DNA from: an uncultured Vicingus sp.
GTDB taxonomy: Bacteria; Bacteroidota; Bacteroidia; Flavobacteriales_E; Vicingaceae
Length of the DNA: 8,689 bases
Assembly: GCA_964422135.1 (NCBI GenBank)
Contig: CAYRAD010000003.1
Location: 15,973-24,661 of the forward strand
Direction: 5' to 3'
The notes beneath the pieces were generated by a model, which was not told the DNA's origin, made no database searches, and was given only the letters and a program-made list of their open reading frames with translations. The translations under genes were made by a program, and so were the position numbers. Of the stretch, positions 1 to 8,689 are shown piece after piece; within the stretch, counting starts at the first letter, position 1; every line of letters starts with the position of its first letter.

Positions 1-1172
1 ACATAGCAATAATTGGTCTTGGTGTTACCAAGTTTGGAGAACTTTTTAATCAAAGTTATGAAGACTTAGTTAGAGATGCCGCAACTCAAGCTGTTAAAGA
101 TGCAGGAATTGGATTAGATGAAGTACAAGGCGCATGGCTGTCAACTGCTTTTCCAGAGATAGGAGTTTTTAAAGGAAGGAGTGGAATGGATTTAGTTGAA
201 CCACTTAACCTCTATGGAATCCCGGTAACAAGAGTTTCTAACTTTTGTGCTTCAGGAGCTGATGCCATAAGAAATGCTGCCAATGCTTTAGCTGCTGGTG
301 AATGTGATGTGGCAATGGCATTAGGTGTAGAAAAATTAAGAGACCGTTCTCCGCAAGATAGTATTGTTAAGATGATGGTTGAATTGTCTCATCCTTATTA
401 TCAAAAAGGATTTACTGCAGCAGGAACTTTTGCAGTTTACGCCAAAAGAATGATGCATGAATTTGGTTTAACAAAAGAAGATATAGCCAATGTTTCAGTG
501 AAAAATCACCTTCATGGAACATTAAACGAAAAAGCACACCACAGGATAGCTTGCACAATGGAACAAGTTATGAGTTCACCAATGGTTGCAGATCCATTAA
601 CGGTGATGGATAGTTGTCCTACAACTGATGGAGCAGCTTGTGTAATTATGGTTCGAGCAGAAGATGTTGACAAGGCAAAACACAATCCTGTTTTTGTTGA
701 TGGAATTGGTTTATCAGTTTCAACAGGATGGGATTTACCATTTTTTGACCCTAAATGCGATTTTCTTTCTTTCCAAGCGACAAAAGATGCCGCAGCTATG
801 GCCTATAAACAAGCAGGAATTACCAAACCAATTGATGAAATAGATTTGGTTGAGGTGCACGATTGTTTCTCGATAGTTGAATTGTTGACTTACGAAGATT
901 TAGGATTATGTAAGCCAGGTGAGGCGAAAGATATGATTAGAGGAAAGTCAACTCAGTTTGGTGGCGAAATTCCGGTAAATGTAAGTGGAGGATTGCTTTC
1001 ATGTGGCCATCCAGTTGGTGCAACAGGAGTAAGAATGGTTGTTGAAATTGCCAATCATCTGAGAGGAACTGCTGGAGAACGACAAGTAAAAGGAGCCAAA
1101 AGAGGCATCTCACATAATATCGGTGGTCCAGGAGCAATTGCTTCTGTAATAATATTAAATAATGAAAATTAA
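1..1172 (+). CDS. SCP2/SCPx-type thiolase (acyl-CoA C-acyltransferase), 5'-partial
   Basis: The frame is open from nt 3 and reads IAIIGLGVTKFGELFNQSYEDLVRDAATQAVKDAG, the canonical thiolase N-terminal strand. The Met at 186 in the ORF track is therefore internal and the real start is upstream of the window. The nucleophile Cys sits in VSNFCASGADAI (tgt 246-248). An HDCF motif (858-869) replaces NEAF, as in SCP2-type thiolases. GGLLSCGHPVGATG is the thiolase C-terminal signature, and there is no CxG cysteine near the C-terminus, again SCP2-like. Stop is TAA 1170-1172. Confidence 0.9.
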   Translation, partial: IAIIGLGVTKFGELFNQSYEDLVRDAATQAVKDAGIGLDEVQGAWLSTAFPEIGVFKGRSGMDLVEPLNLYGIPVTRVSNFCASGADAIRNAANALAAGECDVAMALGVEKLRDRSPQDSIVKMMVELSHPYYQKGFTAAGTFAVYAKRMMHEFGLTKEDIANVSVKNHLHGTLNEKAHHRIACTMEQVMSSPMVADPLTVMDSCPTTDGAACVIMVRAEDVDKAKHNPVFVDGIGLSVSTGWDLPFFDPKCDFLSFQATKDAAAMAYKQAGITKPIDEIDLVEVHDCFSIVELLTYEDLGLCKPGEAKDMIRGKSTQFGGEIPVNVSGGLLSCGHPVGATGVRMVVEIANHLRGTAGERQVKGAKRGISHNIGGPGAIASVIILNNEN

Positions 1173-1174
1173 AA

Positions 1175-2167
1175 ATGGATAACATGATAAATCAACAAAC
1201 ATTCAAATTAGCAATTATCCTATTGCTTTCTTTCGTTTCAACTTTAGGTTATTCTCAAGTTGCCACTGAGAATAGTAGCGAATCAACTACGCCTTCAGTA
1301 AATTCTGATATCGGAAATACAGAAACCAGGCATATATTTAAAAGAAAAGGAAATTTATATTTCTATTGGGGTTATCCTAAAGCTTATTATAGCCACAGTG
1401 ATATTAGTTTTACTGGTGATATATATGATTTTACTATTACTGATATAATGGCTACGGATGATTCTTACAAGCATGATTTTACTACTTATATTAATCCTGG
1501 AACATTCAGTATTCCAATGTATAACTGGAGATTGGGTTATTTTATTAATGACAAAACATTTATCACTTTTGGTCAGGATCACATGAAATATGAAATGAAG
1601 AAACAAGCAACATACCTTACTGGAGAAATTAGAAGTGGGGAATTTGAAGGAGTTTATGATCACACAATGGTAGTTGTTGGAGAAGATTCTAATGAAGAAA
1701 TTCTTCATACTGATTATTTAGATTCTTTACCAGGTGAATTTGTTGCAGAGTTTGAACATTGTGATGGATTAAATGATTTCGGATTTGAAATAGGTAGATT
1801 GGAGCAACTATGGATTTCAAAGAATTTGAAAAATGCGCTTTCAGTACAGGGTACTTTTGGCATGGGGATGATGATTCCGGATTCAGAAGTAGAAATAATT
1901 GAGCGTAAACCAAAACATAATAACGCAGAAGGAAGAAAATCATTTCATCTAGCAGGATACAGTTTTTCAGCAAGTATTGGAATGCAATTTGATTTTTTTA
2001 AGCACTTATTTATATTGGGAAAACTGAAAGCTGGATATATAAATTTACCTGATATCCTTACTTCTTTGGAGGGAGGAACTGCAAGCCAGCATTTTAATTT
2101 TCTAGAACCTAGTCTTGTAGTTGGTTATTCTGGGTCTATTAGTAGAAAGAAAAAAGAAAAAAAATAA
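1175..2167 (+). CDS. Secreted hypothetical protein, possible outer-membrane beta-barrel; family not recognised
   Basis: ATG 1175 lies 2 nt after the thiolase stop (alternative ATG at 1184). The N-terminus KLAIILLLSFVSTLGYSQ looks like a Sec signal peptide without a lipobox Cys. The mature part is rich in Tyr/Phe/Trp/Gly, with alternating-hydrophobic stretches (LYFYWGY, YNWRLGYFI, FHLAGYSFSASIGMQFDFF, LFILGKLKAGYI, SLVVGYSGSI) that suggest amphipathic beta strands. It ends in a Lys-rich tail, RKKKEKK, rather than a terminal aromatic residue. Function is an inference only. Confidence 0.65.
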   Translation: MDNMINQQTFKLAIILLLSFVSTLGYSQVATENSSESTTPSVNSDIGNTETRHIFKRKGNLYFYWGYPKAYYSHSDISFTGDIYDFTITDIMATDDSYKHDFTTYINPGTFSIPMYNWRLGYFINDKTFITFGQDHMKYEMKKQATYLTGEIRSGEFEGVYDHTMVVVGEDSNEEILHTDYLDSLPGEFVAEFEHCDGLNDFGFEIGRLEQLWISKNLKNALSVQGTFGMGMMIPDSEVEIIERKPKHNNAEGRKSFHLAGYSFSASIGMQFDFFKHLFILGKLKAGYINLPDILTSLEGGTASQHFNFLEPSLVVGYSGSISRKKKEKK

Positions 2168-2188
2168 ACGTGAATTCTTAATTTAAAA

Positions 2189-2707
2189 GTGAGTACAGTA
2201 GTAAAAATAGAAAACATCGCATCTCAGGTGTTATTTGTGAGAAGTGAAAAAGTATTGCTTGATTTTCATTTAGCTAAGTTATATGAAGTAGAAACGCGTG
2301 CCTTAAAACAGCAAATTCGTAGGAATATAGAAAGATTTCCTGAAGATTTTATGTTTCAATTAACTAAACCTGAATGGCAGGAGCTCATCACAAATTGTGA
2401 TAACCTTAGTCAGTTTAAGTTTTCACCTTCACTTCCTTTTGCTTTAACCGAACAAGGAATTGCAATGCTGTCAAGTGTTTTGAGGAGTAAAAAAGCAATT
2501 GAAGTGAATATCGCGATAATGAGAACATTTGTTCAGCTCAGAAAATTAATGAGTACAAATGAAGAACTCGCAAACAAAATTGAAAGATTAGAGACAAAAT
2601 ATGATGAGCAATTTCAAATTGTATTTAACGCAATAAAGAAATTAATACATCAGGAAAATAAACCAAGAAAAGAAATAGGTTATAAAACTAACAAGAAACA
2701 GAAATAA
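2189..2707 (+). CDS. ORF6N-domain (KilA-N-related) DNA-binding protein
   Basis: GTG 2189 is the only plausible initiator. The frame opens after TGA 2171-2173, and the first in-frame ATG is deep inside the conserved domain. VLLDFHLAKLYEVETRALKQQIRRNIERFPEDFMFQLT and LPFALTEQGIAMLSSVLRSKKAIEVNIAIMRTFVQLR match the ORF6N consensus as I remember it (VMLDxDLAxLYGVxTxxLNxxVKRNxxRFPxDFMFQLT ... AFTEQGVAMLSxVLxS). The C-terminal tail is charged and coiled-coil-like. Confidence 0.82.
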   Translation: MSTVVKIENIASQVLFVRSEKVLLDFHLAKLYEVETRALKQQIRRNIERFPEDFMFQLTKPEWQELITNCDNLSQFKFSPSLPFALTEQGIAMLSSVLRSKKAIEVNIAIMRTFVQLRKLMSTNEELANKIERLETKYDEQFQIVFNAIKKLIHQENKPRKEIGYKTNKKQK

Positions 2708-2710
2708 GAA

Positions 2711-2738
2711 TTCTGAACTCAACATTCTGAATTCAAAA
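2711..2738 (+). repeat. Tandem 14-bp imperfect direct repeat carrying GAATTC-centred palindromes
   Basis: TTCTGAACTCAACA (2711-2724) and TTCTGAATTCAAAA (2725-2738) share 12 of 14 positions. They overlap the 8-bp palindromes AGAATTCT (2707-2714) and TGAATTCA (2728-2735). A third TGAATTC lies at 2171-2177, on the other side of the ORF6N gene. Confidence 0.6.
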
Positions 2739-2748
2739 TCATATAAAA

Positions 2749-3132
2749 ATGAAAGTATTATTAAGTAAACCAGGATTAGACGGACATGATGTAGGTGTTA
2801 AAGTACTTGCTCACGGTTTAATTGAAGCTGGATATGAAGTTGTTTATACAGGATTAAGAAAATCTATTGAAGATATTGTTCGAATGGCAATAGAAAATAA
2901 AGTAGATACCATTGGTCTTTCTATTCTCTCAGGAACACATTTAGTGTTAGCTCAAAAGATGAAAGAAGTAATGGATGAAAATAAGTTAAATATACCTTGG
3001 TTTGTTGGAGGAAATATTCCAGCACAGGATGTGGAGAAATTAGAAGCGATTGGTGCTTCAAAAGCATTTCCAACAAGTACAAAGGTGGATGAAGTTGTAG
3101 AATATTTTAATACTGTTATGATAAAAAATTAG
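2749..3132 (+). CDS. Coenzyme-B12-binding small subunit of a split acyl-CoA mutase
   Basis: The DxHxxG base-off/His-on motif is present as LDGHDVG (2779-2796). The SxL motif is in GLSILSG and the GG motif in FVGGNIP. The length (127 aa) fits a flavodoxin-like fold, and the overall pattern KPGLDGHDxGxKV...GYEVVYTGLRxSxEDIV matches methylmalonyl-CoA-mutase C-terminal domains and IcmB/HcmB-like small subunits. Confidence 0.92.
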   Translation: MKVLLSKPGLDGHDVGVKVLAHGLIEAGYEVVYTGLRKSIEDIVRMAIENKVDTIGLSILSGTHLVLAQKMKEVMDENKLNIPWFVGGNIPAQDVEKLEAIGASKAFPTSTKVDEVVEYFNTVMIKN

Positions 3133-3151
3133 AACACAGATAACGCAGATG

Positions 3152-3185
3152 AATATGATTTATTAAGATAGAATTAAATCATATT
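3152..3185 (+). promoter_or_regulatory. AT-rich hairpin between the mutase small and large subunit genes (possible attenuator, processing site or operator)
   Basis: AATATGATTTA (3152-3162) is the exact reverse complement of TAAATCATATT (3175-3185). The loop is 12 nt and TT-A-T follows the stem. Only one G:C pair is present, so it would be weak as an intrinsic terminator. A five-codon mini-ORF, ATG AAT ATG ATT TAT TAA (3149-3166), overlaps the 5' arm. Confidence 0.3.
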
Positions 3186-3227
3186 TTATCATAACAATCA
3201 GTGTTCCATAAATAATTTAGAAAGAAA

Positions 3228-4856
3228 ATGAGTACAACAAAAAATAAAACAAAGATTACAGCCGAAGATTTAGGTGTTAAAAAAGTTCACCTTGAATCAG
3301 GTATTGAAGTAGATCCTATTTATACGGCCGCTAATGTGGAAAATTCTAATAGCAAACACGAAATGCCCGGAGAATATCCTTTTACAAGAGGAATCCATAA
3401 TACGATGTATCGTAAAAGACCTTTTACCATTCGTCAGTATGCGGGGTTTGCCTCTCCTGAAGAAACCAATGAACGTTTTCAGTTTTTAATTGCCAACGGA
3501 CAATCAGGTTTAAATGTGGCCTTTGATTTACCTACTCAATGTGGATTGGATTCCGATGATCCAAGAGCTATGGGTGAAGTTGGTAGGGTTGGGATGACAG
3601 TAGATACATTAGATGATTTTGAAATTGCCTTTAAAAATATTGATTTAGATAAAATTACCGTTTCATTAACCATTAATGGCTCTGCAATTATTGCAATTGC
3701 CATGTATGTAGCTATGGCAGAAAAAGCAGGGTACGATATTAGTAAGTTAAGAGGAACAGCTCAAAATGATATTTTAAAAGAATTTATTGGTCGTGGAACC
3801 TGGATTTTTCCAGTTGATAAATCAGTAAAATTGGTTGTTGATACCATAGAATATTGTGCACAACATGTACCTAAATATAGTCCGGTTAGTGTTTGCGGAT
3901 ATCACATCAGAGAAAGTGGTGCTAACCCAATACAAGAAATGGCATATGCCTTTTGTATTGCAAAAGCTTATACTGATGGTGCATTAAGCAGAGGAATTGA
4001 CATTGATGATTTTGCATCTAGATTATCGTTTAACTTCGATATTTATGGAAATCTATTTGAACAAATTGCTAAGTTTAGAGGAGGAAGAAGATTATGGGCA
4101 AAAATAATTAGAGAAGAATATGGAGCTAAAAATGATAAATCATGTTGGTTAAGAATGATTGCCGGTGGTGGTGGAGGTGGATTAACCAAAGAACAACCAG
4201 AAAATAACATAATAAGAAGTGCCTATTATGCATTGATTAGTGCGTTATCAGGAACACAAACTATGGCTTTATGCAGCTATGATGAAGCCTACACTATTCC
4301 AACAGAACATTCTGCAGAAATCTCTTTAAGAACCATGCAAATAATGATTCATGAAATGGGAATTTGTGATACTGTTGACCCTTTAGGAGGTTCTTATTAT
4401 GTAGAATCGTTGACCGATACTTTTGAAGAGAAGATTAAGGAAGAAATGAAAACGGTAGATGAGTGGGGAGGAATTGTAAATGCAGTAGCAACTGGAAAAA
4501 TTCAAGAATCTGTTTCTAAGCAAGCATATACCAGAGAGATGGGAATGCAAGCAGGAGATGTAGATAAAGTTGGAGTAAACATTTTTACAAGAGAAGAAGA
4601 AAGTAAAGAAGTAGAATTTCATCCATACAATCAAGAGGCTGCTGACAAACAAGTTGAGAAGTTAAAACGAATTAAAGCTTCTAGAAACAATGATTTAGTA
4701 AAACAAAAACTGGATGCAATTAGAAAGGATGCTGAGGAAGATAAAAACCTAATGCCTTCAATAATAGAAGCAGTAAAAGAATATGCAACAGTTGGAGAGA
4801 TAGTACAAGTGATGAAAGATGTTTATGGTGAATTTGAAGAGCCAATTTTTTTTTAA
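3228..4856 (+). CDS. Acyl-CoA mutase large (substrate-binding TIM-barrel) subunit, methylmalonyl-CoA mutase family, divergent
   Basis: YPFTRGIHNTMYRKRPFTIRQYAGF, GLNVAFDLPTQ, GTAQNDILKEFIGRGTWIFP, GYHIRESGA, NNIIRSAYYAL and SYDEAYTIPTE align with MCM-family large subunits, most like the split archaeal type. The carboxylate-contacting pair of MCM is retained: the Tyr89 equivalent is Y71 (tat 3438-3440) and the Arg207 equivalent is R189 (cgt 3792-3794). YH (Y225-H226) is also retained. The normally conserved RxHxQT(S/A)GxSLT segment reads RMIAGGGGGGLT (4149-4187). Confidence 0.92.
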   Translation: MSTTKNKTKITAEDLGVKKVHLESGIEVDPIYTAANVENSNSKHEMPGEYPFTRGIHNTMYRKRPFTIRQYAGFASPEETNERFQFLIANGQSGLNVAFDLPTQCGLDSDDPRAMGEVGRVGMTVDTLDDFEIAFKNIDLDKITVSLTINGSAIIAIAMYVAMAEKAGYDISKLRGTAQNDILKEFIGRGTWIFPVDKSVKLVVDTIEYCAQHVPKYSPVSVCGYHIRESGANPIQEMAYAFCIAKAYTDGALSRGIDIDDFASRLSFNFDIYGNLFEQIAKFRGGRRLWAKIIREEYGAKNDKSCWLRMIAGGGGGGLTKEQPENNIIRSAYYALISALSGTQTMALCSYDEAYTIPTEHSAEISLRTMQIMIHEMGICDTVDPLGGSYYVESLTDTFEEKIKEEMKTVDEWGGIVNAVATGKIQESVSKQAYTREMGMQAGDVDKVGVNIFTREEESKEVEFHPYNQEAADKQVEKLKRIKASRNNDLVKQKLDAIRKDAEEDKNLMPSIIEAVKEYATVGEIVQVMKDVYGEFEEPIFF

Positions 4857-4861
4857 AATAA

Positions 4862-4908
4862 GCTATTAGCCTTTTGCTATTGGCTGCTAAGAGCTAAAGG
4901 CTAATCGC
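4862..4908 (+). repeat. Imperfect 13-bp inverted repeat (stem-loop) in the mutase/CoA-transferase intergenic region
   Basis: GCTATTAGCCTTT (4862-4874) pairs with AAAGGCTAATCGC (4896-4908) with one mismatch, and the loop is 21 nt. The loop contains a near copy of the left arm (GCTATTGGCT, 4876-4885). An alternative pairing exists between CTTTTG (4871-4876) and CAAAAG (4909-4914). The region is richer in G+C than the flanks and has no downstream T-tract. Confidence 0.5.
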
Positions 4909-4922
4909 CAAAAGTTAGATAA

Positions 4923-6098
4923 ATGACAAAACAAAAAACCATATTAGCTCTCGAGCAAGCATTAACGTTACCTTATGCAACAGAACGTTTTGCTCAGTTA
5001 GGTTGGAGGGTAATTCGTATAGAAACTTCTGGTAAACCCGGACAAAAAAGTCCTGGTGACCCAAATAGATATATTGGTGAAGATACTGGTGTGGATGATT
5101 TGCATGCTTATTTTATGGCTCCTAATTTAGGAAAGGAAGCCATAACTTTAAACTTAAAAGATACCAATGATCAACAGGTGCTAAAGCAGATCATCAAAGA
5201 ATTGGAAGTAGATGTGTTTATGTGTAATACACTTCCTAAACGTTACCAACAATTTGGAATTGATTACGATATTTTAAAAGAAGCGAATCCTGCATTGATA
5301 TGGTGTGGAATTTCTGCTTTCGGACCTGATTATCCTGATAGAGCTGGTTATGATCCAGCATTACAAGCCATGTTAGGTTATATGCATTTAACAGGAGAAC
5401 CAGATAGAGATCCTATGCTTTGTGGTTTGCCACTAATAGATTTAAAAGCTGGTGACGAAGCTTTTGCCCAAGTTCTCTTAGCAATGTTAGAACAAAAAGA
5501 AACAGGAAAAGGAAAACGAATTGATATTTCTATGGCACAATGTGCTACTTCGTGGTTAATTACAGCTTTACCTCAAACCCAGTTTGCTGAAGATGTTTCT
5601 AAATTATTTACAAGGAGTGGAAATGAACACAGAAGTTTTGTGCCATCTAACTGCTACCCTACAAAAGATGGCTATGTGTATTTGGCTGTTGGTAGTGATT
5701 CGCAATGGCAAAAAGTAACGGAGATTGAAGGTTTTGAGCATTGTGCTAAAGAGAATAGAACAACAAACAATGGAAGAAAATTAGATAAAGAGAACGTTTA
5801 TGCGGATATCCGAAAAGGCTTGGAAAATTATACAACAACTGAATTTATTGAAGTCTGTTTATCTCTTGGTTTAGCTGTTGCTCCAGTTAACGATGTAAAA
5901 CAAGTTGGAGAATTAGATTTCATTAAAAAGCTGATGGTAAAAACAGTATTGCCAAATGGTGAGGAGGTGATGTTATTTCCAGCACCAATGGATACGGATT
6001 ATCTAAAAGAAAGAAACAATGTAATGAGTTTGCCTCCACGATTAGGAGAGCACAACGATAAAGTGTTTAAAGAAGCAGGGATAATTGATCAAGATTAA
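4923..6098 (+). CDS. Family III CoA-transferase (CaiB/BaiF/AMACR superfamily)
   Basis: The N-terminal ILALEQALTLPYATERFAQLGWRVIRIE...GDPNR corresponds to the VLDLSxxxAGPxAxxxLADLGAxVIKVE...GDxxR motif. The central GISAFGPDYPDRAGYDPALQAMLGYMHLTGEPDRDP...IDLKAGDEAF contains the conserved Asp-x3-Gly position of the catalytic aspartate. The length (391 aa) is typical. The stop overlaps the next start (TAATG, 6096-6100). Confidence 0.9.
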   Translation: MTKQKTILALEQALTLPYATERFAQLGWRVIRIETSGKPGQKSPGDPNRYIGEDTGVDDLHAYFMAPNLGKEAITLNLKDTNDQQVLKQIIKELEVDVFMCNTLPKRYQQFGIDYDILKEANPALIWCGISAFGPDYPDRAGYDPALQAMLGYMHLTGEPDRDPMLCGLPLIDLKAGDEAFAQVLLAMLEQKETGKGKRIDISMAQCATSWLITALPQTQFAEDVSKLFTRSGNEHRSFVPSNCYPTKDGYVYLAVGSDSQWQKVTEIEGFEHCAKENRTTNNGRKLDKENVYADIRKGLENYTTTEFIEVCLSLGLAVAPVNDVKQVGELDFIKKLMVKTVLPNGEEVMLFPAPMDTDYLKERNNVMSLPPRLGEHNDKVFKEAGIIDQD

Positions 6099-8689
6099 TG
6101 GAAAACAAAGTAGTTGACATATTAACTTCTTATTCCACTCCTCACAAAGTGAGTGCAATTGGTAACGAAGCTATTGCTAGAGGTGCTATTGAGGCTGGAG
6201 TTAATGGTGTTTTCTCCTATCCAGGCACACCATCTACTGAGATTTCAGAAATCTTTAACCTAGTTAGTAATCATCAGATTGCTGAGAATGTAGAGGATGC
6301 TACTTATTTTGAATACAGCATCAACGAGAAAATTGCTTTAGAAAAAGCCATTGCCTTTTCAATAGGAAATAAAAGTGCTTTGTGTGTGATGAAAAATGTG
6401 GGAATGAATGTTGCTTCCGACCCATTAATGTCTATCACTTATCAAACCATTATTGCACCATTAGTCATTATCGTTTGTGATGATCCTGGTTGTCACTCTA
6501 GTTCTAACGAGCAAGATTCTAGGTATTGGGGAAATATGGCTTCAGTGCCAGTTTTTAACCCTGCTACTCCAAAGGATGCTTACGAAATGACAAAGCAAGC
6601 ATTTAAGCTTTCAGCAGAATTGAGATTACCCGTTATTGTAAGAACAACCACTCGTGTTTCACATACTAGAGGAATGTTAGCGTACAATGAAATAAATACA
6701 GATAACAGAGAAGCCCATTTTGATAGAATGCCTGAGCACATTAATATTCCAGCTCGTACAGCAGCAGCTCATCAAAAATTACTCAATAAATTACACAGCG
6801 AAACAGTTGAACCTTTCTTCAAGCAATTCAATAGAATAATATTGAATAACAAGGGTAAATTAGGAATAATCAGTAGTGGAGTTGCAACAACTTATCTGTT
6901 AGAAATCATCAAACGAAACGAATTAGAAAATCAAGTTCAGCTATTAGATTTAGGTTTAATCTTTCCTTTTCCAGAACAAGATGTATTAACATTTTTACAA
7001 AAAGGAGTTGAAAAAGTGATGGTGGTTGAAGAATTAGATCCCATTATTGAAAATGCTGTTAGAAATAGTGTTCAAAAAAATAATCTGAACTGTCAGATTG
7101 TAGGAAAACAAGAAAGCAGTTTAAGTACTACAGGGGAATTTACTTTAGGTCAAATAGATAAAGCCATAGCGAATTTCTTTGAAATAGAAACAGTAGGAAA
7201 AGAAGGATTGAATGATGTTGCAGCTTATGATGAGAACTTACCTCCACGACCACCGGCTTTATGCTCAGGTTGTCCACACCGAGCAAGTTATTATGCATTA
7301 AAACTAATTGTTCCTCAGAAAAATTCACTTTCAGGAGAGGGAGTTCATGATACTATATTATGTGGAGATATTGGTTGCTCAGGATTGGGAGCCTTGCCAC
7401 CATTAAAAATGATTGATACCATTAACCATATGGGAATGAGCATTTCCATGGCTCAGGGACTTTCTCAAGCATTAAATACTAATTCTCCCCCTTTAGGAGA
7501 GATGTCCGAAGGACAGAAGGGGACTAAAGTGGTAGCTATGTTGGGTGATGGCACTTTTTTTCACTCTGGAATATCCTCTTTATTGAATGCGGTCTATACC
7601 AAAACTAATATGTTGGTCATTATTTTTGATAATAGAACCATCGGAATGACGGGGCATCAGGATCATCCCGGGGCTACTCACCAAGACAAATATCACGAAA
7701 TTGAAATTGAGCCTTTAGTGAAAGGAATGGGGGTGGAATTTGTAGAAACACTGATGCCTTTCGATATGAAAGATACCTATAAGAAAGTGGAAGACGCAAT
7801 GGCTCAAGAAGGTGTTTCAGTTTTAGTCTCAAAAGCACCATGTGTTTTCTTGCCCGATTATATCAACTACACCAAGCAAGATTCAAAAATTATTATTGAC
7901 CATAGCCGGTGCAATACTTGTCATAATCATGCTGATAGTGAAATTATTTGCTCAAAAATGGCAAATTCCAATTCGAGTTTAACTCGGGCTATTGCTAAAA
8001 TTAAAGCCGAGAAAAGAGTAGATTCTAAAGATCAAGCATGCCCGGCAAACATTTGTAACCATGGCTTCTTTAATTCAATTTTAGAAAAAGATTACAAAAC
8101 TGCATTGAATATGGTTAGGGATAAACTGTTGTTTTCACGAACCTGTGGAGATATCTGTCATAGACCATGCGAATTGTTCTCCAATCATGAATCAGATTCT
8201 ACAATTCCAATTAAGCAGTTAAAGAAATTTGTTTCAAACATCGATGAGAATTTTGAAGATTTTTCCACAACATTTTTACAAGTAGAAAATGCAACAAAAA
8301 AAGACAAAAACATAGCAATAATAGGAGCTGGACCTGCCGGATTAAGTGCTGCTTACGATTTAATACGAACAGGATATAAGGTAACCGTTTTTGAGAAAGA
8401 AGCTGAAGCAGGTGGCTTAATTAAGTATGTGATTCCTGATTTTAGAATGGATAAAAAAGGATTTGATTTTGAAGTTGGACAGCTTGCAAAAATGGGTGTT
8501 CAATTTAACTTCAATACTTCGCTTGGAAAAGATATTTATTTGGACGAACTATCGAATCAATATGATGGATTAATCATTGCACTGGGATTAGGAAAATCAA
8601 AAGAACTGGATATTATTAAATCAGTTTCAGATGAACAGAAATTTGATGCGTTGACCTTTCTTATAGCATACAATCACATATCTCCAACT
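6098..8689 (+). CDS. IorA-type TPP-dependent 2-oxoacid oxidoreductase fused to a GltD/NfnB-like Fe-S + FAD/NAD(P)H oxidoreductase module, 3'-partial
   Basis: This ORF is not in the supplied track. I translated frame 2 from ATG 6098 to nt 8689 as 864 codons with no stop. IorA hallmarks are GNEAIARGAIEAGVNGVFSYPGTPSTEI, RPPALCSGCPHR (around 7247-7282) and the TPP motif GDGTFFHSG...IIFDNRTIGMTGHQ (GDG at 7544-7552). From about residue 605 (nt 7910) there are eight Cys in a GltD-like N-terminal arrangement, including ACPANICNHGFF and SRTCGDICHRPCE. A dinucleotide-binding fold follows: NIAIIGAGPAGLSAAYDLIRTGYKVTVFEKEAEAGGLIKYVIPDFRM (from 8309). The ORF continues beyond the window. Confidence 0.87.
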   Translation, partial: MENKVVDILTSYSTPHKVSAIGNEAIARGAIEAGVNGVFSYPGTPSTEISEIFNLVSNHQIAENVEDATYFEYSINEKIALEKAIAFSIGNKSALCVMKNVGMNVASDPLMSITYQTIIAPLVIIVCDDPGCHSSSNEQDSRYWGNMASVPVFNPATPKDAYEMTKQAFKLSAELRLPVIVRTTTRVSHTRGMLAYNEINTDNREAHFDRMPEHINIPARTAAAHQKLLNKLHSETVEPFFKQFNRIILNNKGKLGIISSGVATTYLLEIIKRNELENQVQLLDLGLIFPFPEQDVLTFLQKGVEKVMVVEELDPIIENAVRNSVQKNNLNCQIVGKQESSLSTTGEFTLGQIDKAIANFFEIETVGKEGLNDVAAYDENLPPRPPALCSGCPHRASYYALKLIVPQKNSLSGEGVHDTILCGDIGCSGLGALPPLKMIDTINHMGMSISMAQGLSQALNTNSPPLGEMSEGQKGTKVVAMLGDGTFFHSGISSLLNAVYTKTNMLVIIFDNRTIGMTGHQDHPGATHQDKYHEIEIEPLVKGMGVEFVETLMPFDMKDTYKKVEDAMAQEGVSVLVSKAPCVFLPDYINYTKQDSKIIIDHSRCNTCHNHADSEIICSKMANSNSSLTRAIAKIKAEKRVDSKDQACPANICNHGFFNSILEKDYKTALNMVRDKLLFSRTCGDICHRPCELFSNHESDSTIPIKQLKKFVSNIDENFEDFSTTFLQVENATKKDKNIAIIGAGPAGLSAAYDLIRTGYKVTVFEKEAEAGGLIKYVIPDFRMDKKGFDFEVGQLAKMGVQFNFNTSLGKDIYLDELSNQYDGLIIALGLGKSKELDIIKSVSDEQKFDALTFLIAYNHISPT

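Follow-up and report, generated by a model that had tools for sequence, protein, structure and literature searches.

An 8,689-nt stretch of DNA from an uncultured Vicingus sp. (contig CAYRAD010000003.1, positions 15,973 to 24,661; hereafter the window) encodes a two-subunit B12-dependent acyl-CoA mutase among seven genes, and with good confidence we regard it as the middle third of an iaa-type gene cluster for oxygen-independent breakdown of the indole ring. The cluster is real and is read as a variant of the known iaa (indoleacetate) pathway where an aminotransferase and an indolepyruvate oxidoreductase (IOR) take over the entry from the ligase, and it is common in uncultured bacteria of the Fibrobacterota-Chlorobiota-Bacteroidota (FCB) group. 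More tentatively, and at somewhat less than even confidence, we propose that the FCB-group cluster constitutes a complete, undescribed oxygen-independent route to 2-aminobenzoyl-CoA from tryptophan, or from indole where a TrpB-like enzyme is present, with two features that would be new, an NAD(P)+-reducing fusion of IorA to a GltD-like module (IorA::GltD) and a poly-glycine clade of aryl-succinyl-CoA mutases. To our knowledge, little is understood at gene level of how tryptophan and indole are completely degraded under anaerobic conditions, and work on the iaa pathway has so far concerned auxin degradation only, chiefly in a small number of denitrifying Betaproteobacteria.

The window proteins were assigned by Pfam and NCBIfam profile searches. 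All seven genes lie on the + strand, and the gaps of 2, 21, 41, 95, 66 and -1 nt given by the original prediction are exact by open reading frame listing and translation:

1..1172, + strand: thiolase of the SCP2/DUF35-partnered 3-ketoacyl-CoA type, cut at the 5′ end and 4 codons short
1175..2167, + strand: predicted outer-membrane beta-barrel of 330 aa with a signal peptide; no Pfam family
2189..2707, + strand: ORF6N/anti-repressor-like protein of 172 aa (Pfam ORF6N, 99 bits)
2749..3132, + strand: B12-binding small subunit, IaaH-type (Pfam B12-binding; TIGR00640, 108 bits)
3228..4856, + strand: B12 acyl-CoA mutase, large, substrate-binding subunit (Pfam MM_CoA_mutase, PF01642, 631 bits)
4923..6098, + strand: family III CoA-transferase, IaaL-like (Pfam CoA_transf_3, 238 bits)
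6098..8689, + strand: IorA-like protein with a fused GltD-like [4Fe-4S]/FAD/NAD(P) module; 3′-truncated, 864 of ~1133 aa being present

The profiles confirmed the thiolase, split B12 mutase, CoA-transferase and 2-oxoacid oxidoreductase functions predicted before. Of the gene block as first described, these five functions stood; two of the seven genes, for the 330-aa protein and the ORF6N protein, had been left uninterpreted.

On tree position and motifs, the large subunit belongs to a clade of its own outside the methylmalonyl-CoA mutase (MCM) clade, against which the original prediction had asked for it to be compared. In a comparison library clustered at 50% identity, the mutase clade formed one cluster, the next clusters were only 49-51% identical, and representatives with canonical MCM motifs were 34-41% identical to the window large subunit. 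In a neighbor-joining tree the window subunit grouped with P0121 (L087 type, also with the poly-Gly strand described below), and P0122 and P0124 came next; none of the 32 nearest representatives was an HCQTSG/xQTxG sequence of the MCM type or of the 2-hydroxyisobutyryl-CoA mutase (HCM)/isobutyryl-CoA mutase (ICM) type. Member names of the clusters nearest to the window mutase were uninformative, and PDB matches of the large subunit were HcmA (487 bits) and human MCM (415 bits).

The small subunit displays the DxHxxG (LDGHDVG), SxL and GG motifs. In the large subunit, the MCM Tyr (RQYAGF) and Arg (GRGTW) are retained; they align with RQYAGF and VRNTY of human MCM, and we take them to be the equivalents of Tyr89 and Arg207 of P. 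shermanii MCM. Since these two residues are common to mutases with any carboxylate-bearing substrate, they are not MCM-specific. At one strand, MCM has THCQTSGWSLT, HCM/ICM-like enzymes have FHTQTAGSTLT, and the window, P0121 and L094 have RMIAGGGGGGLT, the window large subunit carrying MIAGGGGGGLT where MCM, HCM and ICM have HxQT(S/A)G. The Gln of the HxQTxG strand presumably lines the MCM active site, and loss of the HxQT(S/A)G side chains may make room for an aryl substituent. Because a literature search on an active-site role of this strand turned up nothing, we keep the enlarged pocket as an inference.

These data bear on whether the enzyme is a housekeeping MCM of propionate or succinate metabolism beside unrelated neighbors. 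Such an enzyme would carry the conserved Tyr and Arg that bind the substrate carboxylate, and many database records call the homologues 'methylmalonyl-CoA mutase'. However, the subunit falls outside the MCM clade at the low identities given above, and the invariant HCQTSGW strand has become AGGGGGG. Moreover, methylmalonyl-CoA epimerase, propionyl-CoA carboxylase/transcarboxylase and MeaB were found neither in the window, as already noticed from its sequence, nor within 10 kb on either side of the mutase in loci L003, L004 and L005, and the mutase is tightly linked to iaa-type genes in about 80 loci. We therefore consider the housekeeping reading effectively refuted. The original prediction had favored a route for an aryl- or alkyl-substituted dicarboxylate or 2-oxoacid over housekeeping succinyl/methylmalonyl-CoA interconversion; the mutase clade and the neighborhood, which holds iaa-type genes (lactamase, molybdenum hydroxylase, IaaF-type dehydrogenase, DUF35 partner and IorB) and not propionate genes, support this for an aryl-substituted succinate or 2-oxoacid.

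The next-nearest mutase clades (46-49% identity) are also paired with a family III CoA-transferase, in L089 (504-10929) and L086 (10001-16605). Their contexts include a GntR regulator, cyclic amidohydrolases, PreT/PreA-like dihydropyrimidine-dehydrogenase subunits and a glyoxalase-type protein, and these clusters may be further uncharacterised routes for N-heterocycles that use the mutase and CoA-transferase module.

The genes beyond the window edges were read from related contigs. The small-subunit protein is identical in the window and in the Joint Genome Institute (JGI) contig L001, which matches window 1..4835 at 99.5% DNA identity and reaches 2.5 kb further upstream, where it has genes for an acyl-CoA dehydrogenase and for a 459-aa protein that joins a PhlA-like domain (like 3-ketoacyl-acyl carrier protein synthase (KAS) III and hydroxymethylglutaryl-CoA synthase (HMGCS)) to DUF35. 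Homologues of the large subunit at 80-96% identity occur in many Bacteroidota, and the contigs carrying the 96% and 89% homologues contain a single co-directional, co-linear cluster of ~16 genes. It starts with a fusion of 3-hydroxyacyl-CoA dehydrogenase and enoyl-CoA hydratase (HADH/ECH), followed by the hydantoinase-like HydA and HydB, RidA, the acyl-CoA dehydrogenase, the KAS::DUF35 fusion and the thiolase. The B12 subunit, the mutase, the CoA-transferase, IorA::GltD (~1130 aa) and IorB make up the middle, and the Fer2, molybdenum-cofactor (MoCo) and FAD subunits of a xanthine-dehydrogenase-family enzyme and a class I/II (HisC-type) aminotransferase the end.

Co-conservation was assessed in ~80 genomes by tblastn with reference proteins and by clustering the open reading frames of all loci, counting only loci long enough to reach the gene in question. 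We found the B12 subunit next to the mutase in 74 of 79 loci, the CoA-transferase after it in 66 of 71 and the acyl-CoA dehydrogenase in the cluster in 58 of 63; HydB (50/57), HydA (47/51), Fer2 (47/58), IorA::GltD (45/63) and MoCo (41/54) co-occurred with it as well, nearly all co-conserved genes being on the mutase strand. The neighborhood conservation for which a test had been suggested is thus strong and co-linear. In L087 and L088 the mutase is only 51% identical and fused to its own B12 domain, and the same gene set is present in another order; as the set is kept in a separate lineage, it lends independent support to a functional module.

A scan of GTDB species genomes found close mutase relatives in 354 genomes, the closest carrier being an uncultured Vicingus sp. 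(Flavobacteriales). The best 80 carriers comprise Flavobacteriales, Saprospiraceae, Chitinophagales, Cytophagales, Prolixibacteraceae, Ignavibacteria, Neomarinimicrobiota/Fidelibacterota and a few others. Tblastn against plasmids returned generic homologues only, with identities of at most 47.5% for the mutase and at most 41% for the IaaF-like dehydrogenase.

The cluster is also a mosaic. The block of CoA-transferase, IorA and IorB is 57-60% identical between lineages (window 4923..8689 against L003 11630-16817 and L008/L009), amid flanking genes that are 92-95% (mutase) and 85% (Fer2/MoCo) identical, which suggests that the block has been replaced by recombination. In L016 (12982-17379) and L022, a 1465-aa 'CoA enzyme activase' with two BcrAD_BadFG ATPase domains and DUF2229 is inserted between the CoA-transferase and IorA genes. 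L016, L018, L020, L025, L048, L052 and L060 have an extra four-gene 2-oxoacid:ferredoxin oxidoreductase (a small ferredoxin and alpha, beta and gamma subunits) a short way upstream of the mutase, before the B12 subunit, beside the IorA::GltD gene and not instead of it.

We compared the cluster with the iaa operon of Aromatoleum, in which IaaB is a CoA ligase, IaaCE a hydantoinase-like 2-oxoindoleacetyl-CoA lactamase, IaaF a decarboxylating benzylmalonyl-CoA dehydrogenase, IaaGH the mutase and IaaL a phenylsuccinyl-CoA transferase (PMC8360864; PMC8453981; PMC5214803; PMC9613470). The IaaF subclass, found only in iaa clusters, has GGG in place of the YEG of other acyl-CoA dehydrogenases (PMC8360864). 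GGG is present in 66 of 66 cluster acyl-CoA dehydrogenases (...GGGTSE/NE...), including that of L001, whose gene lies outside the window and whose product reads RFTLIGGGTSEIL. Three cluster dehydrogenases, on contigs that also hold the mutase, are annotated by JGI as 'benzylmalonyl-CoA dehydrogenase'. The iaa operon is further said, by Ebenau-Jehle in 2012, to encode a molybdenum hydroxylase.

A reference operon was found through homologue P0505 in L094, a locus with 70% GC in a Burkholderiales metagenome-assembled genome. Its genes encode, in order, the thiolase, an AMP-binding ligase, HydA (705 aa), HydB (564 aa), the dehydrogenase, the B12 subunit, the mutase, the FAD, Fer2 and MoCo subunits and the CoA-transferase. 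The published IaaC and IaaE have 707 and 564 aa, and the iaaB-L gene order is likewise published (PMC9613470, PMC8453981, PMC8360864). Judged by arrangement and protein length, L094 reproduces the iaaA-L order, and its HydA and HydB match IaaC and IaaE in size. Compared with L094, the window large subunit is 64.6% (689 bits), the small subunit 47.5% and the CoA-transferase, which corresponds to the iaaL position, 44.5% identical; for the genes outside the window, L003 gave 50.6% for HydA, 66.2% for HydB, 54.4% for the dehydrogenase, 52.1% for MoCo, 42.9% for Fer2 and 32.3% for the FAD subunit. The AGGGGGG strand is common to the window and L094 mutases. By these comparisons, the window mutase is assigned as the orthologue of the iaa-operon mutase (IaaG/IaaH).

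The ligase of L094 had no tblastn match (E <= 1e-5) in L001-L093, which include the FCB-type and outgroup loci, and no AMP-binding genes appeared in the Pfam tables of L003-L005 and L087. Thus, the sole defining iaa gene that is absent is the activation enzyme. The L094 orthology and the GGG dehydrogenase make the iaa cluster the right one among the examples that the original prediction had offered. Its description of the pathway as uncharacterised does not hold, the type being already known as the Aromatoleum iaa pathway (PMC8360864).

The ~16-gene cluster would provide a different entry. The TIGR03336 model (IOR_alpha) matched residues 20-624 of the 3′-cut IorA with 575 bits (cut-off 651), and GltD-family models covered residues ~590-860 of the fusion, in which Fer4_20 and NAD_binding_8 (NAD(P)/FAD Rossmann) were found. 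L009 encodes a full-length counterpart of 1133 aa, to which the window protein is 79% identical. In this L009 protein, pyrimidine-binding and thiamine pyrophosphate-binding (PYR/TPP) domains are followed by Fer4_20, by an FAD/NAD(P) module (Pyr_redox_2) and, at the C-terminus, by a 2x[4Fe-4S] domain; the next gene encodes IorB. IorB of relatives scores 149 bits against a cut-off of 238. The GltD-like module leads us to predict NAD(P)+, not ferredoxin, as the acceptor; we know of no characterised example of IorA fused to such a module. Loci that lack IorA::GltD encode an 846-aa IorA-IorB fusion, a flavoprotein resembling old yellow enzyme/dienoyl-CoA reductase, a ferredoxin and a glyoxalase-type protein. 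Enzymes of the IOR family form arylacetyl-CoA directly from arylpyruvates, so that a CoA ligase is unnecessary.

The cluster aminotransferase passes the HisC model (315 bits, cut-off 277), and HisC-type enzymes often transaminate aromatic amino acids. Fifteen loci contain a TrpB-like pyridoxal phosphate enzyme of the PRK12391 family (~450 aa; NF009057, 738 bits against a cut-off of 366), on the mutase strand in 14 of them. Its gene lies between HydB and RidA in L010, L011, L019, L027, L028 and L069, before HydA in L024, L026, L058, L062, L065, L074, L076 and L079, and on the opposite strand in L044. Being embedded in the cluster, this enzyme suggests that free indole could enter via tryptophan. 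The best match of the molybdenum large subunit is the alpha subunit of 4-hydroxybenzoyl-CoA reductase and that of HydAB is caprolactamase, which fit a CoA-ester substrate and lactam hydrolysis. Taken together, the IOR, aminotransferase, TrpB-like, molybdenum enzyme and HydAB matches point to a route from tryptophan or indole through indolepyruvate and indoleacetyl-CoA into the iaa route to 2-aminobenzoyl-CoA. The substrate, which had been considered unreadable from the sequence, can thus be narrowed as a class to the indole ring from gene context.

The CoA-transferase (4923..6098) matched no NCBIfam equivalog above its cut-off. The function of IaaL has been described (PMC8360864, PMC11659651), and we propose that its window counterpart may activate (2-aminophenyl)succinate and/or shift CoA intramolecularly, supplying the regio-isomer that the mutase uses.

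From this gene set we infer which substrates and electron acceptor the pathway uses and in what order its steps run, its functional assignments being predictions from sequence. The HisC-type aminotransferase would convert tryptophan to indole-3-pyruvate, in some genomes after conversion of indole to tryptophan by the TrpB-like enzyme. IorA::GltD (6098..8689) with IorB would then turn indole-3-pyruvate, CoA and NAD(P)+ into indoleacetyl-CoA, CO2 and NAD(P)H. The xanthine-dehydrogenase-family molybdenum enzyme would hydroxylate the pyrrole ring at C2, and the ATP-dependent hydantoinase-like lactamase would open the ring to (2-aminophenyl)succinyl-CoA, of which the family III CoA-transferase (4923..6098) is predicted to deliver the correct regio-isomer. 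The two-subunit mutase (2749..3132 and 3228..4856) would interconvert (2-aminophenyl)succinyl-CoA and (2-aminobenzyl)malonyl-CoA, and the IaaF-type dehydrogenase would oxidatively decarboxylate the latter to 2-aminocinnamoyl-CoA. Finally, the hydratase/dehydrogenase fusion and then the thiolase (1..1172) with its DUF35 partner would yield 2-aminobenzoylacetyl-CoA and from it 2-aminobenzoyl-CoA and acetyl-CoA. Gene identities, conservation of the cluster, orthology to the canonical iaa operon and the diagnostic motifs were observed directly and underlie this scheme.

The same enzymatic logic might serve another substrate than tryptophan, such as a 2-oxoacid or amino acid with another N-heterocyclic or aryl group; candidates are derivatives of imidazole, quinoline or a substituted indole, and also indoleacetate that is imported in free form and activated by the CoA-transferase. 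The sub-threshold IOR_alpha score, the membership of the aminotransferase in the HisC (histidinol-phosphate) family and the occurrence of the TrpB-like gene in only 15 of ~80 loci, with none seen in the lineage of the window, agree with this view, as does the pairing of related mutases with CoA-transferases in other N-heterocycle-type clusters (L089). The CoA-transferase could also activate a free acid, IaaL having intermolecular activity (PMC8360864). However, identities to the canonical iaa operon are 51-66% for the mutase, lactamase, dehydrogenase and molybdenum enzyme, and the special motifs are shared, the GGG dehydrogenase of the IaaF type has been reported from indoleacetate clusters only (PMC8360864), and the TrpB-like genes are hard to explain without an indole substrate. 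We consider another substrate unlikely.

We find it quite improbable that aromatic amino acids are fermented by a separate module of IOR fusion and aminotransferase, adjoining an auxin-degradation operon whose activation step is the CoA-transferase. The mosaic identities of the CoA-transferase-IorA-IorB block (57-60% against 85-95% for flanking genes) would fit two joined modules, as would the exchange of IorA::GltD for a different IorA-IorB fusion in some phyla. However, IOR in one of the two architectures occurs on the mutase strand in nearly every locus of sufficient length, its gene overlaps the CoA-transferase gene by 1 nt in the window, and IorA::GltD is kept in the distant, rearranged L087 cluster. 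No locus of L001-L093 has a CoA ligase by tblastn with that of L094.

The thiolase that would end the proposed iaa-type route (Pfam Thiolase_N and Thiolase_C_1; NF004810, 410 bits against a cut-off of 403) has the Cys nucleophile (NFCASG) and HDCF (VHDCF) motifs, and its nearest relatives of known structure are 4yzo, the thiolase of the archaeal thiolase/HMGCS/DUF35 complex (6esq) and BbsB (7pxp); PhlC is also among the closest. In L001 it is preceded by the PhlA-like::DUF35 fusion and the IaaF-type dehydrogenase. In L001 and L003 the fusion aligned best with PhlA, its DUF35 domain matched BbsA, PhlB and 6esq_E, and its PhlA/HMGCS-like domain has no Cys at the aligned nucleophile position. We take the partner to be a predicted scaffold and not an HMG-CoA synthase, and this speaks against a role in the mevalonate pathway. 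The mevalonate/HMG-CoA synthase reading of the partner was rejected, as scores of the HMGCS-like domain were far below the cut-offs, the best alignment was with PhlA and the Cys nucleophile was missing. In about one third of the loci, an ordinary thiolase and a long enoyl-CoA hydratase replace the KAS::DUF35/thiolase pair.

Several points weigh against the tryptophan-fed iaa-type pathway. The reference L094 derives from an uncultured Burkholderiales and not from the experimentally studied Aromatoleum strains, and the best 80 of the 354 carriers are all metagenome-derived or uncultured assemblies. The IaaB ligase, a defining iaa gene, is absent from L001-L093. The lactamase, the molybdenum enzyme and the IaaF-type dehydrogenase lie outside the window and were deduced from L001 (upstream only) and L009 (~81% DNA identity), and the regions seen hold no genes for the further conversion of 2-aminobenzoyl-CoA. 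IorA does not reach the curated cut-off of TIGR03336, and several arylpyruvates can serve as substrates of IOR-family enzymes. The probable use of NAD(P) by IorA::GltD is read from domain content, and the possible lining of the substrate pocket by the poly-Gly strand from MCM crystal structures. For Ferroglobus placidus, an iaa-like route that starts from tryptophan was reportedly put forward on transcriptomic grounds by Aklujkar et al. in 2014; the tryptophan-fed concept may thus not be wholly new.

Between the thiolase and the B12 subunit, the window has two further genes. The 330-aa protein (1175..2167) had no match in Pfam, NCBIfam or PHROGs. Its 91 homologues, one of which (P0311) is 100% identical, are from Bacteroidota wherever an organism name is given and are annotated 'hypothetical'. 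The AlphaFold2 model is all-beta, with a predicted local distance difference test score (pLDDT) of 84 and a predicted template modeling score (pTM) of 0.76, and Foldseek returned solely outer-membrane barrels (OmpA, OmpW, Pla, OpcA and FadL/TodX) as weak matches with template modeling (TM) scores of at most 0.4. The barrel gene is directly 3′ of the thiolase gene in six further loci (L012, L016, L018, L041, L048 and L081), and a homologue of 54% identity is present in the Bacteroidota cluster L091 (477-15189) with BcrAD/BadFG ATPases, an HGD-D protein, an NDP-forming acyl-CoA synthetase, a thiolase, a zinc alcohol dehydrogenase, two hydratases and an HADH/ECH fusion; the L091 cluster may be a ring-reduction pathway of the benzoyl-CoA reductase type. 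The barrel model, the adjacency to the thiolase and the L091 homologue lead us to regard the 330-aa protein as possibly a recurrent accessory barrel and a candidate uptake channel for aromatic acids.

The ORF6N product matches PHROG anti-repressor families. Its gene occurs at this junction only in the window, L001, L002, L009 and L053 and is missing there in most loci; it is probably a lineage-specific hitchhiker and not a member of the pathway. In other lineages and at other junctions, the same conserved operon is interrupted by small, seemingly unrelated genes for the 23S-rRNA intervening-sequence protein (23S-rRNA-IVP), PDDEXK_3, a RelA/SpoT-domain protein and a miaA-like tRNA isopentenyltransferase (IPPT). 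PDDEXK_3 insertions were found in L012, L013, L015, L025, L037, L060, L063 and L082, IPPT insertions in L015, L063, L077 and L084, and small-gene insertions in L009 at 3262-3675 and 7737-8813. The + strand intergenic gaps of the window contained no terminator-like sites or hairpins, and an Rfam scan of the window, L001, L003 and L009 gave no B12 riboswitch and no other RNA family. A sigma-70 promoter scan, whose model is ill-suited to Bacteroidota, returned fewer sites than shuffled controls and was not used.

If the proposed pathway is true, one conserved cluster ties protein-derived tryptophan to aromatic pathways of the benzoyl-CoA type. It could explain how abundant, uncultured Bacteroidota, Ignavibacteria and Marinimicrobia mineralise the indole ring in sediments, aquifers and the dark ocean, the 354 species genomes with close mutase relatives being mostly from uncultured FCB-group members. 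The AGGGGGG pocket variant could mark aryl-succinyl-CoA mutases that are now mis-annotated as methylmalonyl-CoA mutase. It is one of three biochemical targets, the others being an IOR fused to a pyridine-nucleotide module, which would free the entry step from ferredoxin, and a new family of predicted outer-membrane barrels tied to aromatic-acid clusters.

Among known mutases, P. shermanii MutAB, human MMUT and HcmAB (4r3u) share fold and family (PF01642) with the window enzyme, as well as the DxHxxG His-on motif of the B12 subunit and the MCM Tyr and Arg, and HcmAB resembles it in having split large and small subunits. They differ in gene context and in having the HxQT(S/A)G strand, in place of which the window has AGGGGGG. 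BbsAB benzoylsuccinyl-CoA thiolase, the archaeal thiolase/HMGCS/DUF35 complex and PhlACB have a homologous thiolase and a PhlB/BbsA-like DUF35 partner, but the partner in the window-type cluster is one polypeptide in which the PhlA/HMGCS-like domain is fused to DUF35. IorAB of the Pyrococcus and Methanobacterium type resembles the window-type proteins in the PYR and TPP domains and a separate IorB, IorA and IorB of the cluster both scoring below their model cut-offs; in canonical IorA, the TPP domain is followed directly by 2x[4Fe-4S] and ferredoxin is the acceptor, whereas the window-type fusion has a Fer4_20, FAD and NAD(P) module in between.

The iaa operons of Aromatoleum aromaticum EbN1 and A. 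evansii KB740 (iaaA-R; PMC8360864) encode the same core enzymes as the window-type cluster, namely the IaaGH mutase, IaaL, the GGG-type IaaF, the IaaCE lactamase, a three-subunit molybdenum hydroxylase and beta-oxidation enzymes. Aromatoleum uses the IaaB ligase, whereas the window-type cluster has IorA::GltD with IorB, the HisC-type aminotransferase and, in 15 loci, the TrpB-like enzyme. The window-type cluster further differs by its SCP2/DUF35 thiolase with the PhlA-like::DUF35 partner and by the outer-membrane barrel added in some lineages. Its hosts are uncultured Bacteroidota, Ignavibacteria and Marinimicrobia, in contrast to the denitrifying Betaproteobacteria that carry the Aromatoleum iaa operon.

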